Virus record (IMG/VR): IMGVR_UViG_3300048998_000108
Span: 1 to 37,345 of that record
Length of the DNA stretch: 37,345 nt
Reading direction: 5' to 3' (one strand)
DNA from: a virus
Taxonomy: Duplodnaviria > Caudoviricetes
Within the stretch, counting starts at the first letter, position 1; every line of letters starts with the position of its first letter. The notes under the pieces are model-generated. The model had not been told where the DNA came from, ran no database searches, and saw only the letters and a program-made list of their open reading frames with translations. Of this stretch, positions 2,116 through 21,133 are shown in pieces. The position numbers and the translations under genes were made by a program.

Positions 2116-2242
2116 GGTGAATCCATGTTCACGTTCGGCTCTCTCTTCTCAGGCGTGGGCGGTATGGATTTAGGTTTAGAGCACGCGGGCTTCGCTTGCG
2201 CGTGGCAGGTGGAGATAGACACGGATGCGAGACGAGTGCTCG

Positions 2243-2643
2243 GTGAATAGCTCCCCGACTTCAAAGAAGGGGCTTCGACAGAAAGACGCAGAAAGTTGAG
2301 AGGTGCTATGAGTACGGAAGAAATCTACGAACAGTTAAAGCGTCATGTGCGCGACGAATTATACAGAGTCCACGTCGGCGGTCATGGCGACGGATGCCCA
2401 CAATGCACGCGCTTAGATTCGACGTGGACGGGTTGCCCCGTCATTGACGAGTTCATGGTCGAGCGCGTCATCAACGTCTGCAACGTCGGCTTACAGGCGA
2501 TAGCTCTGGCGGCACAATCGCCAGCGTCAACGATTTCTATCACGTCGAAGGGCGGCATAGTTGAGGCGCGGATTTGAAAGCATCCGCGCGGTGGCTACGT
2601 TTTCCTCTCCCTCATAAATGAGGGAGTCTCCAACGAGGTTTTG
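2243..2643 (+). mobile_element. Non-autonomous hairpin-ended element, IS200/IS605 superfamily-like (ISC/IscB-type ends), with one cargo ORF
   Basis: Left end GTGAATAGCTCCCCGACTTCAAAGAAGGGGCT (imperfect hairpin); right subterminal hairpin CTCCCTCA-TAAA-TGAGGGAG (2607-2626); no target duplication; interrupts a conserved gene. Confidence 0.75.
2308..2577 (+). CDS. Cargo protein of the insertion, 89 aa, His/Cys cluster (HxxxHxxxCxxC...C)
   Basis: GAGAGGTG SD, ATG 2308; lies wholly within the inserted element. Confidence 0.65.
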   Translation: MSTEEIYEQLKRHVRDELYRVHVGGHGDGCPQCTRLDSTWTGCPVIDEFMVERVINVCNVGLQAIALAAQSPASTISITSKGGIVEARI

Positions 2644-2922
2644 ATAAAAATTTCCCGCGCGCGGCGAAGCTCGCGGACGTGCGCGAAGCGGGAGCGCACA
2701 ACCTCTCCCGCACTACGCTCGTCGCGGGCGGCTTCCCCTGTCAAGACGTTTCCCGCTGCAACCCGCGCGGCGAAAAACTCGAAGGCGCGCGAAGCGGACT
2801 CTGGTCTGAGTTCGCGCGCATCATTGGCGAGCTTCGACCGGCTTACGCACTCATTGAAAACGTCACAGGGCTCTTTAATTCAGGATTCGAGAGAGTGCTC
2901 TGCGACCTTGCCGCGCTCCGGT

Positions 2923-3237
2923 ATGATGCGGAGTGGACGACTCTACGCGCTTCCGACTTCGGCTATCCGCACACGCGCGAGAGGCTATTCATTGTTGCCT
3001 ACCCCGAACGCGAGCGATTGGCTCAAATGTCGGTGTTCGTTGAAAGTTATCGTCGGCATCTTCGCAAGCGTCAAGACGCGCGAGAATTACCGGCAGATTT
3101 CGATGCCGTACATCTTGAAGCTGTCGGGCGTACCTACGTCCGCATACCGGAAAATTTATGCGTGGATGATGGGCTCCCCGCTCGATTGGTGCGACCTCAA
3201 ATCAGGGGATACGGGAACGCGGTCGTGCCTGAAATAG
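2923..3237 (+). CDS. Putative second (beta) subunit of the C5 MTase in an overlapping frame; start uncertain
   Basis: Frame is open 2641-3237; contains LLPTPNASDW and motif-IX-like YAWMMGSPLDW, which the main frame lacks. Confidence 0.55.
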   Translation: MMRSGRLYALPTSAIRTRARGYSLLPTPNASDWLKCRCSLKVIVGIFASVKTRENYRQISMPYILKLSGVPTSAYRKIYAWMMGSPLDWCDLKSGDTGTRSCLK

Positions 3238-3322
3238 CGGAATGGGTAGGGCGACGAATCTACGCGCACGCTCGCCTTGCGGAGAGCGAGGATTGAATTA
3301 CGATTCACGAAAGGAGCACCGC

Positions 3323-3520
3323 ATGAAGACAACAATCGAAGTCAAGTCGAAGAAAGAAGGCGAACTCATCAAGCGTGGACTCGACGATCCGGTGACGCGC
3401 GCCTTCGTCCAAGTCGTCGGATCGCTATTGCCGCTCACGCCGCGTGCGCGCGAGCGCGTTCTTATCTTCGTTAAAGACTCGCTCGACGAGGAAGCGGAAA
3501 AACTCCGCGATCAAGGTTGA
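3323..3520 (+). CDS. Hypothetical protein, 65 aa
   Basis: AAGGAG SD, ATG 3323 (MKTTIEVKSK...). Confidence 0.75.
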   Translation: MKTTIEVKSKKEGELIKRGLDDPVTRAFVQVVGSLLPLTPRARERVLIFVKDSLDEEAEKLRDQG

Positions 3521-3547: not shown

Positions 3548-4159
3548 ATGAATTTGAACACGATCCCCGTCACCGAGCGCGGACAAGCGGCGGCACTCTT
3601 TCGCGCCTACGCCGACGCGCACCGCATCCGTCCGAACGATAACGACCTCGCGCTGATGCGAACCTACCGCGCCATGTCGAAAGGCTTGCGCGTCTTCGAT
3701 CTCGTCGAAGCCTTCCGCGCGACGGGGCTCGACGAGCGGGGACGCCCTCGCCTAGCCGTCGTGCGCGCCGACGCGAGGCGCGCGAACTTCCGCCACACGG
3801 GGCGTGGCGGCGGCGTCTTCGCGCACTTCGATCTGTGGAGGCGCTCGCGCCGCTCGCACGTCTTTCGCGGCGGTCTCTTTTCCCTCCCCGACCAAACATT
3901 CGACACCGCGAAGATTCCCACATTCTCCGGCACCGTCATCTCAGCCGTCGTGCCGACCATCCCGCCAGAGCATCGCCCGACACGCTCGCTCGCCGGTTAT
4001 CAAATCCTCTTCGAGCCCGTGTGGGAAGACGTGCCGCACGATCCGTTTCTCACTCGGCATCTCTACGGATCGCTTTTCGTCATCGTCGCGGAGTGGGATT
4101 TGACGGAAGTCGAGCAGATGATCTTGCGGATGGTCGAAAGGGAAAGGGGTACGCGGTGA
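3548..4159 (+). CDS. Hypothetical phage protein, 203 aa
   Basis: AAAGGAG SD; ends with conserved-looking P.DPFL.RHL...VAEWDLT.VE segment. Confidence 0.8.
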   Translation: MNLNTIPVTERGQAAALFRAYADAHRIRPNDNDLALMRTYRAMSKGLRVFDLVEAFRATGLDERGRPRLAVVRADARRANFRHTGRGGGVFAHFDLWRRSRRSHVFRGGLFSLPDQTFDTAKIPTFSGTVISAVVPTIPPEHRPTRSLAGYQILFEPVWEDVPHDPFLTRHLYGSLFVIVAEWDLTEVEQMILRMVERERGTR

Positions 4160-4795: not shown

Positions 4796-5296
4796 ATGAA
4801 CACCGCCACCGCCAGCCACAACCCTTCCCCCGCGCCCGCCACAACCCTTCCCCTTCGTTTCGAGACGACTGAGCAGCGCGCGCGCCGCTCCGAACGTGAC
4901 CGCGCGCGCAAAATGCTGAAACGCGCGCAATCGCCCAACGCCGAGCGTCGCGAGCGTTACCTTGCCCTCGCCGCAGAGCTTGAATCGCTCGCATCAACCG
5001 CGCCGGATGAAACGACGCACGCGGAGTTGAACCGCGAGGTGTATCGCATCCGCTTGCGCGGCTCGCATTCAGAGGAAGCGTGCCGCGAATCGGTCTTCAC
5101 TCACGTCTGTAAATCGGCAGTCGAGTTGTCGCGTAAAGAGATCGCAGAGGATGTCGGGTTGTCGGTCGAAGATGTGCAAGTCGCGCTCGATTATTTGACG
5201 AGCGCGGCGGTTGATGTCGTGGAGATTCTCACGCGGGGCGGGAAGGAAAACTGCGGTCGCAAAGGGACGGTGCTCTACTACCGCGCGCGACACTGA
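4796..5296 (+). CDS. Winged-HTH DNA-binding protein; candidate late-gene regulator
   Basis: LSRKEIAEDVGLSVEDVQVALDYL...beta wing LYYR; last gene before the late control region. Confidence 0.65.
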   Translation: MNTATASHNPSPAPATTLPLRFETTEQRARRSERDRARKMLKRAQSPNAERRERYLALAAELESLASTAPDETTHAELNREVYRIRLRGSHSEEACRESVFTHVCKSAVELSRKEIAEDVGLSVEDVQVALDYLTSAAVDVVEILTRGGKENCGRKGTVLYYRARH

Positions 5297-15975: not shown

Positions 15976-16995
15976 ATGCCGACTCCAAACACTTTCAAGC
16001 AGTCAAAAGTCTTCGTCGCCTACTCGCCCGTCGCCGCCGTGCAAGCCGCGTTGGGGACTGCGCTCGACGAAGCCCTCTTGACCGCGCGCCTCAATCTCCC
16101 GCTCGGAAATAAACCGTTGCCTTCGCGCCGCGTCACGCGCGACGACATTCGCGACTGCACGGGCAGGTATTTGATCGGGCGTCGTCTCACGTCGCGTCTC
16201 GCCCTGTGGACGCTCACGCTCGAACAGGTTGACGCGCGACTCGCCGCGATCTTCCTCGCGTGGGCGCAAGGCGACGCAGCAGCAGTGACGGGCTCAGGTG
16301 CGCCCTACACGGAAGCCATCACGCGGCGCGCAAGCGATCAACTCTCCGCGACATCGTTCATCGTCGGCGCGGAAGATAGTGATGAGCCAGCCGAGTTGTA
16401 CAAGGACATGATCTTGAACACGCTCGACATCGAAGCGACCATCCGAGGGAAGGTCACGATGCGCGCGAACTTTATCGGCTCGGCAAACGTCGCCGTCGTC
16501 CCTTCATACACGCCGCCCGCGTGCGGCAACCTCGTGGCTCTGTACGCGCAGGATTGTCAGTTGCTTGTCGGAGGCGTGGACTACACGAGCGATCTCAGAC
16601 AGTTCCACTACGCCTACAACAACAACCTCGCGGCGAACGACGACCCGTTCCCCTTCGACGCGATTGATCTCGTCAGGCTTGAGCGAAGCGAGCAGGGCGA
16701 AACGTCGCAGCTCACGTTCGGCGTCTATGGCACGAAGACGCACGCGCTCTACGGGCACGCTTTCGCCGAAGACGTGCTGGCACTCGCGTTGCGGCTGGGT
16801 TCGGCGACAGAGGGCACGTCCATCATCGCGCTGGGCGCGCAAGTAACACTCGGCGAGCCACCCGTAGGTTACGCGGGCGAGGCGAATCGCTCAGTCGTCA
16901 ACGTCGAAGCCTCCCCGTTCAGCGTGTCGGGGGCGAAGCCCGATCACGTCAACTATGTTGGCGCGTCGAGTCCGCGTCTGCTCGTCGCGGCGTAA
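15976..16995 (+). CDS. Major tail (tube) protein
   Basis: 339-aa beta-rich ORF after neck genes and before chaperones and TMP; GAGG SD. Confidence 0.7.
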   Translation: MPTPNTFKQSKVFVAYSPVAAVQAALGTALDEALLTARLNLPLGNKPLPSRRVTRDDIRDCTGRYLIGRRLTSRLALWTLTLEQVDARLAAIFLAWAQGDAAAVTGSGAPYTEAITRRASDQLSATSFIVGAEDSDEPAELYKDMILNTLDIEATIRGKVTMRANFIGSANVAVVPSYTPPACGNLVALYAQDCQLLVGGVDYTSDLRQFHYAYNNNLAANDDPFPFDAIDLVRLERSEQGETSQLTFGVYGTKTHALYGHAFAEDVLALALRLGSATEGTSIIALGAQVTLGEPPVGYAGEANRSVVNVEASPFSVSGAKPDHVNYVGASSPRLLVAA

Positions 16996-18645: not shown

Positions 18646-21133
18646 CAGGCTCGAAGTCAGTATTGACGTGACGCGCGAAGAGGCGGCATCCGCTTCCTTC
18701 GCCAATGTCGCGCGCTCTGCGGAAGCCGCCACCGCCGCCGTCAACGCGGGCGCGGCAGAGCTATCGCCAGCAGCAGCCGCAATCGAGCGCGATCTTTTGA
18801 AGATGGGCGTCGGCGCGGAGGTCGCGAGAAAAGCCGCGCAGCAGTTCGCAGCGACGACTGTCGAAGCGTCGGCGACGGCGGTTAAGGCTTACGAGCGTGA
18901 GGCGGTCGCGGCTGAACTCTCGGCGAAGCAGCAACTTGCGGCTGCCGCGTCGTTGCAGCGTCAACGCAGCTCCGCTCTCATTCAACAGGCGCGGGAAGAG
19001 GAGCGCGCGGCACTACGCGCGGCGGAAGGCGCGCCGATCTCTGCTTTCGGTCTGCGACGTGCGATCACGACGGGGGCGCAGGCGGCGGGGTTGCCGGGCG
19101 AAGTGGGCGCGCTCGGCGGGTTGGGCGCGTTCGGCGGACCCATCGCGTTAATCGGCGGTGCGCTCGCCGCAGTCGCCGCCGTGCGAGAGTTGATCACGCT
19201 CGACGCCGAAGCGCAGAAAAGCCAGATCGATCTCGCGCTCGCGGCGCGCGACACGGGGCAGAGCTTTGGAGAGTTGAGTGCGGATGCTGAGACTTTCCGC
19301 GCCTCGATCATCGGCACGCGCGAAGATGCGAACACGCTCGCGGGCGCGCTCGGCGATCTGCAAGCACGCACGGGCAATGTTTTCAACTCTCAAGACCTCG
19401 CTCAAAGCCTCTCCACGATCACGACGGCGCGCGGACTCGACGCGAAGGACGCAGCGAAGTTGATCGAGGGCGTCGGGCGTGGCGATAAGGGAGCGTTTGA
19501 AGCTCTGACGAATCGCAGCGCGGAGCTTGCGCTCGACGCTTACGCGCGCTCGGTAGGGACGACGACCGCGCGGCTCACGCAGATGCAGCGCGCGCAAGCC
19601 TTAGTCTCTGCGGCGATGCAGGAGAGCGCGAAATATACCGACCTCGCGGCGGCGCGCGTGGACTCTCTCGACGGGCGGCTGTCGAAGTTCAAATCGGACG
19701 TGACGGACGCGCTCTCACAAGGCGGCGTGCCCTACCTCTTAGGGCTGCTCGCCTCTGGCGGCGATCCGACGAAGGCGGCTGGCATCGGACTGCAACTGAG
19801 CGTCCAGCGCGCGGTGGAAGGTGTGGGCGCGGGCGCGAAGGCTTCGGCGGGCGGATCGGTCACGACCGACGCACAAGACGCCGCGCGACAAGAGGCTCGG
19901 CGCGCGCAGCTCGAAGAGGGGTTGCGCCGCTTTCAAGAGCAGAATTTCGGCGCGGGCACGGAGGGCGTGCAGGCGAGACTCGCGGCGGCGCGCGAGCTGC
20001 AAGCGCGTTTCGAGTCGGTGAAGGCTTCAATCTCGACTGACGATGCCGAAAGGTTCGGTCATCAGATCGCGGAGTCGCTCAAGAGCGCGAATCACCAGCT
20101 CGACGAGATGATCGATCACGCGCGCGATCAAGTTCCCGCCGCGCTCACAACGCTTGCCGCACGACTCGACCGCGATAACCCCTTCGTCAAATTGGGACTC
20201 GAAGGCGAGCAGCGCATCTCTGCTTTGCGAAAACAGTTCGCCCCGCTCGGCGATGATTTTGTCGAGCAGATGGTCAGGATGGAGCGGGCGGCTACGGCGG
20301 TAGATGCCGCCACACTGCGCTTCAATTCGCGTCTGACGGCTTTGCGCGATCATCAGGAAGCCGAGAGGCTCAGGCAGCCCTTCGTCGGCTTGACGGGCGC
20401 GGAAGAGCGCAGCAGCGCGACGGCTGCGGCGCGCGGCAACTTCGCGCTCTCAGGCGTCGCGGGTCGCGAGCAAGCGAACGCCCTTCGCGCCGGATTCGCG
20501 CGCGTCGATCCAAACTTCCTCGCGACGCAGCAATTCAATGAGTTGTTGCGACAAGAGCGCGAGATGAGCGGCTTGACGGGCGGCGCGGCTAAGGCGGCAA
20601 AAGCGGAGTTCGATAAGCGGTTCGAGCAGATTTACAACTCGCTCTCACCCGACCAGCAGGCGCGGGTCGCGCGCGATCCGTCGCTCGCGGTTTCCAACCG
20701 TCGCTTTCAATCGGCGTTCGCGGGCGATGCTGCGCGGTCGCAAAAAGAGATTGCCGATTCGATTGAGCGCGAGCGCGCGGGCAATCAACTGCAAGCGAAC
20801 GCGCGCGAGCAGTTGCAACTCTTCAATCAATCCGGCTTGCCGACGGACGAAAAGCTAAAACAGTTTCTCGCGATCACGGGCACGCTCTCCGATAAAGAGT
20901 TGACGGGCGATCTTCGCATCGCGCGTGCGCGCGCGCTCGACGAGTCGGCGCGGCGCGAGGCGGGCAGAGAAGGCGCGGCGGATAATCTCGTCAAGGCGTT
21001 GACGGCGATCATCACGGGGAAGGGTTTGAAGATTGACGGAGACATCGGCTTGAACTTCAATGTGAAAGACGATCTCACGGTCGCGCCGGATTTAGGCTCG
21101 ACGCCGAAACCCGAAGCGTCGGATGGACAGTAG
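18638..21133 (+). CDS. Tape measure protein
   Basis: 831 aa, Ala-rich helical, Gly-rich hydrophobic segment, RLEVSID N-terminus. Confidence 0.88.
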   Translation: MANRLEVSIDVTREEAASASFANVARSAEAATAAVNAGAAELSPAAAAIERDLLKMGVGAEVARKAAQQFAATTVEASATAVKAYEREAVAAELSAKQQLAAAASLQRQRSSALIQQAREEERAALRAAEGAPISAFGLRRAITTGAQAAGLPGEVGALGGLGAFGGPIALIGGALAAVAAVRELITLDAEAQKSQIDLALAARDTGQSFGELSADAETFRASIIGTREDANTLAGALGDLQARTGNVFNSQDLAQSLSTITTARGLDAKDAAKLIEGVGRGDKGAFEALTNRSAELALDAYARSVGTTTARLTQMQRAQALVSAAMQESAKYTDLAAARVDSLDGRLSKFKSDVTDALSQGGVPYLLGLLASGGDPTKAAGIGLQLSVQRAVEGVGAGAKASAGGSVTTDAQDAARQEARRAQLEEGLRRFQEQNFGAGTEGVQARLAAARELQARFESVKASISTDDAERFGHQIAESLKSANHQLDEMIDHARDQVPAALTTLAARLDRDNPFVKLGLEGEQRISALRKQFAPLGDDFVEQMVRMERAATAVDAATLRFNSRLTALRDHQEAERLRQPFVGLTGAEERSSATAAARGNFALSGVAGREQANALRAGFARVDPNFLATQQFNELLRQEREMSGLTGGAAKAAKAEFDKRFEQIYNSLSPDQQARVARDPSLAVSNRRFQSAFAGDAARSQKEIADSIERERAGNQLQANAREQLQLFNQSGLPTDEKLKQFLAITGTLSDKELTGDLRIARARALDESARREAGREGAADNLVKALTAIITGKGLKIDGDIGLNFNVKDDLTVAPDLGSTPKPEASDGQ

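Follow-up and report, generated by a model that had tools for sequence, protein, structure and literature searches.

A 401-bp stretch of a phage genome (positions 2243..2643) interrupts a gene for a C5 methyltransferase (MTase). It is very probably a non-autonomous element of the IS200/IS605 type that captured a phage-type gene, likely inactivated the MTase, and likely entered it in single-stranded form through a Y1 TnpA acting in trans. This reading draws directly on the insert and its exact borders, on TnpA-type ends with their guides, on sister elements with other cargos and on sister elements that encode TnpA. An earlier note on this DNA had already proposed a non-autonomous IS200/IS605 derivative with cargo, and the ends, guides and sister elements support that proposal.

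The window, i.e., the whole stretch of DNA that was analysed (37,345 nucleotides), is a 37.3-kb contig of the linear class that is 49% complete, and no terminal repeat was found on it. Its genes for terminase, portal, P22-type coat protein and a large serine recombinase indicate a temperate tailed phage. The window sequence was present in two soil-metagenome runs of the same study, either of which may have been the source of the contig, and no RNA run containing it was listed.

The interrupted methyltransferase and the borders of the insert

The 5′ part of the MTase gene (2125..2242, plus strand) contains motif I. Its frame opens at 2125 and runs as far as codon 42, a stop (2248-2250) inside the insert. 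The 3′ part (2644..3296, plus strand) is still open, with the PCQ, ENV, RxR and GNAV motifs intact. When the 401 nt from 2243 to 2643 were deleted in silico, a single frame of 256 aa with the junction RRVLDKNFP was obtained. The earlier note, which described a clean 401-bp insert, was therefore right in its coordinates, frame and junction. Because 473 other deletions in the range tried likewise keep the MTase frame, restoration of the frame is by itself weak evidence, and the length of the insert was fixed by the spacing in homologues. The two halves match PF00145 positions 1-36 and 40-169. In the rejoined MTase the distance from motif I to PCQ is 61, identical to that in 89 of the 94 homologues in which both motifs could be located, among 119 aligned. 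No insertion follows residues 38-52 in any of the 119, and the junction columns are free of gaps; uninterrupted homologues with the predicted junction are thus present.

No target duplication was found beyond a single G at the junction, the same one-base ambiguity that the earlier note had described. The sister copies share the five starting bases behind different flanks and have a final G before AT(A/G)AA, and their agreement settles the boundary as GTGAA...G|AT(A/G)AA. An independent 151-nt contig from run X1, with a different flank, departs from the window sequence at exactly 2243.

The split MTase is probably dead, as judged from its sequence, because the earliest possible start of the 3′ part is a GTG at 2679, and a protein started there lacks residues 40-51, among them an Asp kept in 117 of the 119 homologues. 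The intact frame of the 3′ part points to a recent insertion. No other family site seen splits a recognisable conserved gene.

Ends, guides and targets

In the IS200/IS605 convention the whole element (401 bp, 2243..2643) lies on the minus strand, with its left end at 2643 and its right end at 2243; the cargo gene lies on the plus strand, in the direction of the phage operon. The right end carries the terminal motif TTCAC (2243..2247, minus strand), which family ends mark as the transposon-encoded right cleavage site and which is also found in ISGst2 (10.1101/2023.03.14.532601). It is followed by an imperfect subterminal hairpin (2253..2272, minus strand), judged by eye from the sequence and the family alignment, and at the hairpin foot by the DNA guide GAAG (2273..2276, minus strand), the final base of which is complementary to the terminal nucleotide of the element. 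A guide of this kind, in one of three states, is present at 15 of 15 family ends.

At the left end, the main structure (2598..2635, minus strand) consists of an outer 4-bp stem (2598-2601 with 2632-2635), an inner hairpin (2607-2626) and the guide GAGA (2627-2630, minus strand). A second hairpin (2566..2589, minus strand) has an 8-bp variable stem in which 8 of 8 pairs are compensatory across 10 ends, and a conserved loop, TTGAAAGC on the plus strand, that contains the cargo stop codon. This hairpin of the family corresponds to the second left-end hairpins known in IS608, ISDra2 and IS605 (PMC5934647). The target outside the element is TTTAT (2644..2648, minus strand; ATAAA on the plus strand), the family norm being TTCAT. 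One guide-target pair in the 401-bp element is therefore G.T, since TTTAT instead of TTCAT faces the guide GAGA. Of the hairpins that the earlier note had seen near both ends, those at the 3′ end were borne out by folding (2555-2655, z −3.7, 0/200 shuffles). The 5′ end alone folds no better than chance (z +1.3), and its hairpin has its support from the family alignment only.

The element comprises one 89-aa ORF and 65 + 66 nt outside it, i.e., 131 non-ORF nucleotides in total, in line with the earlier description of a single cargo gene with no TnpA, TnpB or IscB and no room for an omega-RNA. Rfam gave no omega-RNA (HEARO) match to the element. A reading as an IStron or group I intron was rejected: no intron family matched in the Rfam scan, and 131 non-coding nucleotides are too few for a group I ribozyme core. 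No terminal inverted repeats were found among the 22 pairs listed.

The guides covary with the cleavage sites. The terminal base complements the last base of the guide at all 15 right ends (G/C in 8, T/A in 5 and A/T in 2), and the terminal motifs TTCAC, TTCAA and TTCAT represent three states that each match their own guide; a sixteenth right end, found later, is also complementary. Five of the 15 carry the TCAA/GAAT pair of IS608, in which this guide/cleavage-site logic has been described (PMC5934647). The ends share ancestry and had been inspected before they were picked, so the covariation amounts to a few independent changes, not fifteen. In the three left-end stems of 10 ends, 88% of 199 cells are paired, with slid controls at 29-45%, and compensatory changes occur in 17 of 20 pairs (0/500 shuffles); these counts are favoured because the structure was drawn from the same sequences.

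Of the 16 left ends listed, some of which came from patterns requiring the target, 13 are preceded on the minus strand by the target TTCAT; the 401-bp copy has TTTAT at this place, and TTCAC occurs there where one element adjoins another. TTTAT, TTCAT and the terminal TTCAC have all been reported in Geobacillus ISGst elements (10.1101/2023.03.14.532601). A covariation between the third base and the target, seen in the first three copies, was dropped when more copies contradicted it. TTTAT may be the original target or may have mutated after insertion. At the corresponding position of the MTase, K is the commonest residue (82/119 homologues), and seven homologues have DE, which would correspond to TTCAT.

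The element and its family thus have the hallmarks of IS200/IS605. Subterminal hairpins occur without terminal inverted repeats, and the left end both folds and covaries; insertion is 3′ of a fixed target of 4-5 nt, with no duplication; guide and cleavage site are complementary at 15/15 right ends, with one G.T pair at the left end of the 401-bp copy; and four sister elements contain a cognate Y1 HUH TnpA. Because its guide mismatches the target at one position, the 401-bp copy may excise poorly.

Pattern and profile searches found no further copies of the 401-bp element within the window. At 869-901 there is a solo second hairpin in which 9/9 positions pair and the loop is that of the family; the other parts of a left end are missing. 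It lies in the gap behind a replication-organiser-like gene, after short TTTCA(G/T) repeats, and is possibly the relic of an earlier element.

Sister elements and their cargo genes

The family was found by pattern scans of viral and metagenome contigs, followed by profile searches of those contigs. With the right-end profile, 16 true ends scored at least 17 (15 of them being seeds), and the best reversed control scored 8.4. The ends do recur elsewhere, bracketing other ORFs in seven elements and tnpA in four, so that neither of the two outcomes named in the earlier note as refuting it was obtained. Together with the 401-bp copy there are eight complete cargo-only elements, the others being L001 (311 bp), L012 (399 bp), G003:16283-16768 (486 bp, two ORFs), G004:10415-10780 (366 bp), G002:5713-6395 (683 bp), L072 (354 bp) and L070 (316 bp). 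An additional cargo element, in L015, has a degenerate end. Among six cargo elements compared, DNA similarity is limited to the ends, and in an all-against-all BLASTP comparison no two of 10 cargo proteins matched with an E below 0.16. The 190-aa cargo of the 683-bp element belongs over its full length to phrog_12600 (E 9e-71), a family of unknown function; it has an HPPC motif, which we take to recall cytosine methyltransferases.

Four complete elements encode a TnpA matching PF01797, namely L042 (1088 bp, E 4e-42), G002:1570-2828 (1259 bp, E 5e-44), G002:21467-22668 (1202 bp, E 6e-38) and L071 (1189 bp, E 6e-40). Their genes lie on the opposite strand and comprise a variable small ORF, a second small ORF (HTH-like in all but one of the four elements), and the Y1 TnpA. 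A promoter-like AT-rich stretch is followed in these elements by an unrelated ORF of 71-134 aa that differs in all four. A fifth tnpA element, read by eye, is interrupted. No TnpB or IscB ORF was found in the four complete elements. The TnpB domain PF07282 was found in none of five related records, with the control matching in 8 of 14; a scan for RRXRR was likewise 0/5, with its control also matching nowhere. No iscB stands beside any family end that was read.

Additional family ends were found in other contigs of run X2. Among 185,579 species genomes, one right-end pattern gave four loci, all of them chance matches, and no true member; a BLASTN search of annotated phages and plasmids with the element returned short chance matches only. 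In the viral scans, 1 of 2, 3 of 4, 15 of 23 and 3 of 13 rows were discarded as chance after reading. L018 and L035 were left out of the family since they have no second hairpin. The L035 insert (~865-2544) has a similar left end and, by eye from motifs, an apparent tnpA and tnpB. L073 contains two related IS200/IS605-like inserts of ~400 bp (~2140-2540 and ~3025-3425; the same in L075), which were set aside as yet another type. Their interiors are conserved without a clear ORF, ATGAA follows each, and they probably belong to another group, as elements of the PATE or guide-RNA type.

The left end of one element abuts the right end of another at L015 (oriented 2542/2543) and at G004:10780/10781, giving the same junction as a circular intermediate would have. 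Three left ends occur within 4 kb in G002. Such ends therefore pile up in some phages. Several left ends also stand alone, so an ORF elsewhere may in some cases lie between two ends by chance, without ever having moved as an end-ORF-end unit. At G003:16768-20311 (L059, L060) we observed a csf2-like gene (TIGR03115, E 2e-20, below the cut-off) and a cysH-like gene with two further ORFs. They are bounded by a family right end at 20311 and, at 16768-16818, by a left end that is inverted and truncated. The gene set resembles a type IV CRISPR-associated operon and is possibly a 3.5-kb cargo.

The cargo gene of the 401-bp element (2308..2577, plus strand) is preceded by GAGGTG (2300..2305, plus strand), a Shine-Dalgarno-like sequence whose function is presumed. 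The 89-aa product has eight relatives with 58-78% identity, and a profile search of 1.84 billion representatives added three more (11 in total). One His and three Cys are invariant and possibly form a metal site; our best guess is a small metal-binding accessory protein. The cargo belongs to no family in Pfam, PHROG or NCBIfam, and its predicted structure (pLDDT 69.8) matched no known fold (best Atlas score 0.77, best Foldseek E 0.88, best Z 4.5). A search for relatives in viral contigs gave 170 pattern matches, none of which was confirmed.

The last codons and the stop of the cargo gene come from the second hairpin of the element. This C-terminal tail is absent in all 11 relatives, suggesting that the gene was fused to the element end at capture. 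The cargo stop codon lies within the hairpin loop in six of the eight complete cargo elements and 14 nt earlier in the other two, and no main cargo ORF reads through the hairpin in another frame. This constancy suggests selection for a translatable cargo, an effect that shared ancestry could inflate. Just outside the elements, the target ATG opens an ORF of at least 66 codons at 9 of the 14 ATG targets listed. In L001, the initial bases of the element substitute for the stop of the upstream gene.

Mechanism, alternative readings and significance

In IS608, both hairpins are bound by TnpA while the DNA is single-stranded; the enzyme cuts the sites selected by the guides, reseals the donor and pastes the circle behind a target (PMC5934647). 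For the 401-bp element, the minus strand would have been peeled off, circularised and pasted 3′ of TTCAT, here of the near-match TTTAT, with no duplication. The TnpA would have been supplied by a sister element on the host chromosome, in a prophage or in a co-infecting phage. We infer action in trans because no Y1 TnpA was found on the 37.3-kb contig and no TnpA on five other cargo-bearing contigs. Around the MTase, three window genes of unknown function (1795-2115, 3548-4159 and 4796-5296) have relatives in the provirus G002 (29-48% identity). With two tnpA genes and four left ends of the family, G002 is a candidate source lineage for the helper TnpA.

On the plus strand the family target, ATGAA, frequently coincides with a start codon, and a GAGG-type ribosome-binding site forms the end of the element. 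For these two reasons, insertions at gene starts would be nearly silent, with the cargo read from the phage transcript. The 401-bp copy is the exception, having entered the middle of a gene instead. Since it sits inside a conserved gene, its ORF is not a resident gene merely flanked by ends, and the mid-gene landing indicates that ends and cargo travelled together. No second site of this cargo element was found, so the argument for movement as a unit comes from the interrupted gene alone. The cargo would most likely have been captured by recombination that swapped the tnpA core for a phage ORF, and selection would keep ORFs that stop in or just before the second hairpin.

An alternative that we consider unlikely has two steps, in which an ordinary TnpA-encoding or empty (PATE) element entered the MTase and at a later time, while in place, exchanged its core. 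The phage ORF would have been gained by illegitimate or by end-to-end homologous recombination, and the cargo unit itself would never have transposed. Cores are freely exchanged in the family, with eight cargo sets and four gene sets before tnpA, and solo ends and a solo second hairpin occur. Core deletions are known for IS605-type elements (PMC3119063), and an identical cargo element at two sites was not found. However, the fully open 3′ part of the MTase with its intact motifs leaves little time for two events, both element ends are intact, and the contigs of three runs contained neither an empty nor a TnpA-filled allele at the MTase site.

The earlier note had also raised the idea of a reversible switch, a phase variation, regulated or selected, in which phage methylation alternates as the element leaves and re-enters the gene. 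A scarless excision would restore the MTase frame, and the MTase halves are undecayed. This idea nevertheless found no support and is very improbable. No excision product, circle or empty allele of the element was found, and at the site itself the contigs of three runs, which drop rare variants, were all filled, with the joined form absent. There is no helper in cis, and no TnpB or IscB, omega-RNA or homing nuclease was found that could re-install the element. The target TTTAT is mismatched to the family guide, and excision of ISGst2 is reported to depend strongly on its cognate target (10.1101/2023.03.14.532601). Moreover, a family site splitting a recognisable conserved gene was seen nowhere else.

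Least probable of all is an origin by deletion from an IscB (ISC) element, the cargo having taken the place of its nuclease and omega-RNA: the cargo has the orientation of iscB relative to the ends, ISC elements target N|ATGA (PMC4810608) and the IscB of ISGst5 uses TTCAT (10.1101/2023.03.14.532601), but all four complete TnpA relatives hold only a small ORF, an HTH-like ORF and tnpA, an omega-RNA remnant is absent, and iscB adjoins no family end read. ISC and IS605/IS1341 elements have termini of this sort and N|ATGA or ATAA targets in common (PMC4810608). The ends therefore do resemble those associated with IscB, as the earlier note had it, but that name is too narrow for a family whose TnpA relatives lack IscB.

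The preferred reading, a non-autonomous element mobilised in trans with its cargo, sets the family beside several known systems. PATEs, described in Haloquadratum (PMC3119063) and, related to ISGst1 and ISGst5, in Geobacillus (10.1101/2023.03.14.532601), are likewise short, have subterminal hairpins but no transposase, make no target duplication and have ends in common with TnpA-encoding elements. The ISGst elements also match the family in the TTCAT/TTTAT target and the TTCAC terminal motif. According to the accessible parts of the sources, however, PATEs encode no protein (PMC3119063; PMC4810608; 10.1101/2023.03.14.532601), whereas the 401-bp element has an intact 89-aa ORF with 11 relatives, and the ORFs of its sisters differ. 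IS608 and ISDra2 are alike in guide/cleavage logic, in the second left-end hairpin and in the family of the TnpA found in the sisters, but the 401-bp element has neither tnpA nor tnpB. In its autonomous sisters, unlike in IS608 and ISDra2, tnpB is lacking and tnpA comes after two other genes, a variable small ORF and an HTH-like one.

Elements of the ISC, IS1341 and IS605B groups resemble the 401-bp element in being non-autonomous, in the N|ATGA or ATAA target and in the orientation of iscB (PMC4810608). The 401-bp element differs from ISC and IS1341 in lacking a nuclease and an omega-RNA, in being three to four times shorter and in its variable payload. Membership of ISC was rejected, as there is no iscB or omega-RNA (HEARO) within the ends, and so was membership of IS1341/IS605 (TnpB), for which there is no room and PF07282 was 0/5 in related records. 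The mobile elements MPME1 and MPME2, inserted in mycobacteriophage genomes, are similar in size (~440 bp) and have one small ORF (PMC4351075), but they have terminal inverted repeats and a single family of 123-aa ORFs, in contrast to the TnpA hairpins and varying ORFs found here. Membership of this group was rejected as well: the element has no inverted repeats, and no match to an annotated phage covered more than 8% of the query. Mobile insertion cassettes are derivatives of kilobase size with inverted repeats that depend on DDE transposases. They share with the 401-bp element a passenger gene between IS ends and mobilisation in trans, whereas the family described here has single-strand HUH ends and units of 0.3-0.7 kb. 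MIC231 is named as a mobile insertion cassette in PMC6542083.

In the accessible parts of the literature we found no report of phage mini-elements that have TnpA-type ends and differ in cargo, although passenger-carrying members may be covered in reviews or supplements; the accessible text of a 2026 preprint on IS605 accessory genes does not use the word "cargo". As far as those sources go, non-autonomous IS200/IS605 elements have been described as empty (PATEs) or as carriers of RNA-guided nucleases. Here, the same ends enclose eight different small cargos, sisters with these ends carry a bare TnpA operon, and the copy in the middle of a conserved gene is natural evidence of a cargo unit moving. 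More tentatively, and as a proposal that we do not yet favour, the family may represent a gene-cassette system of temperate phages, with units of 0.3-0.7 kb that carry one or two small genes, TnpA in trans, landing at ATGAA with a new ribosome-binding site, tandem stacking and exchange of cargo. Such a system, if it exists, would be a path by which a single-strand transposase brings many tiny accessory genes into early operons, and would provide a natural minimal cargo vector for TnpA. If the finding is general, it would explain part of the micro-gene mosaicism of phages, and would offer matched sets of TnpA, ends and cargo whose three natural guide variants would allow programmable single-strand insertion to be tested.
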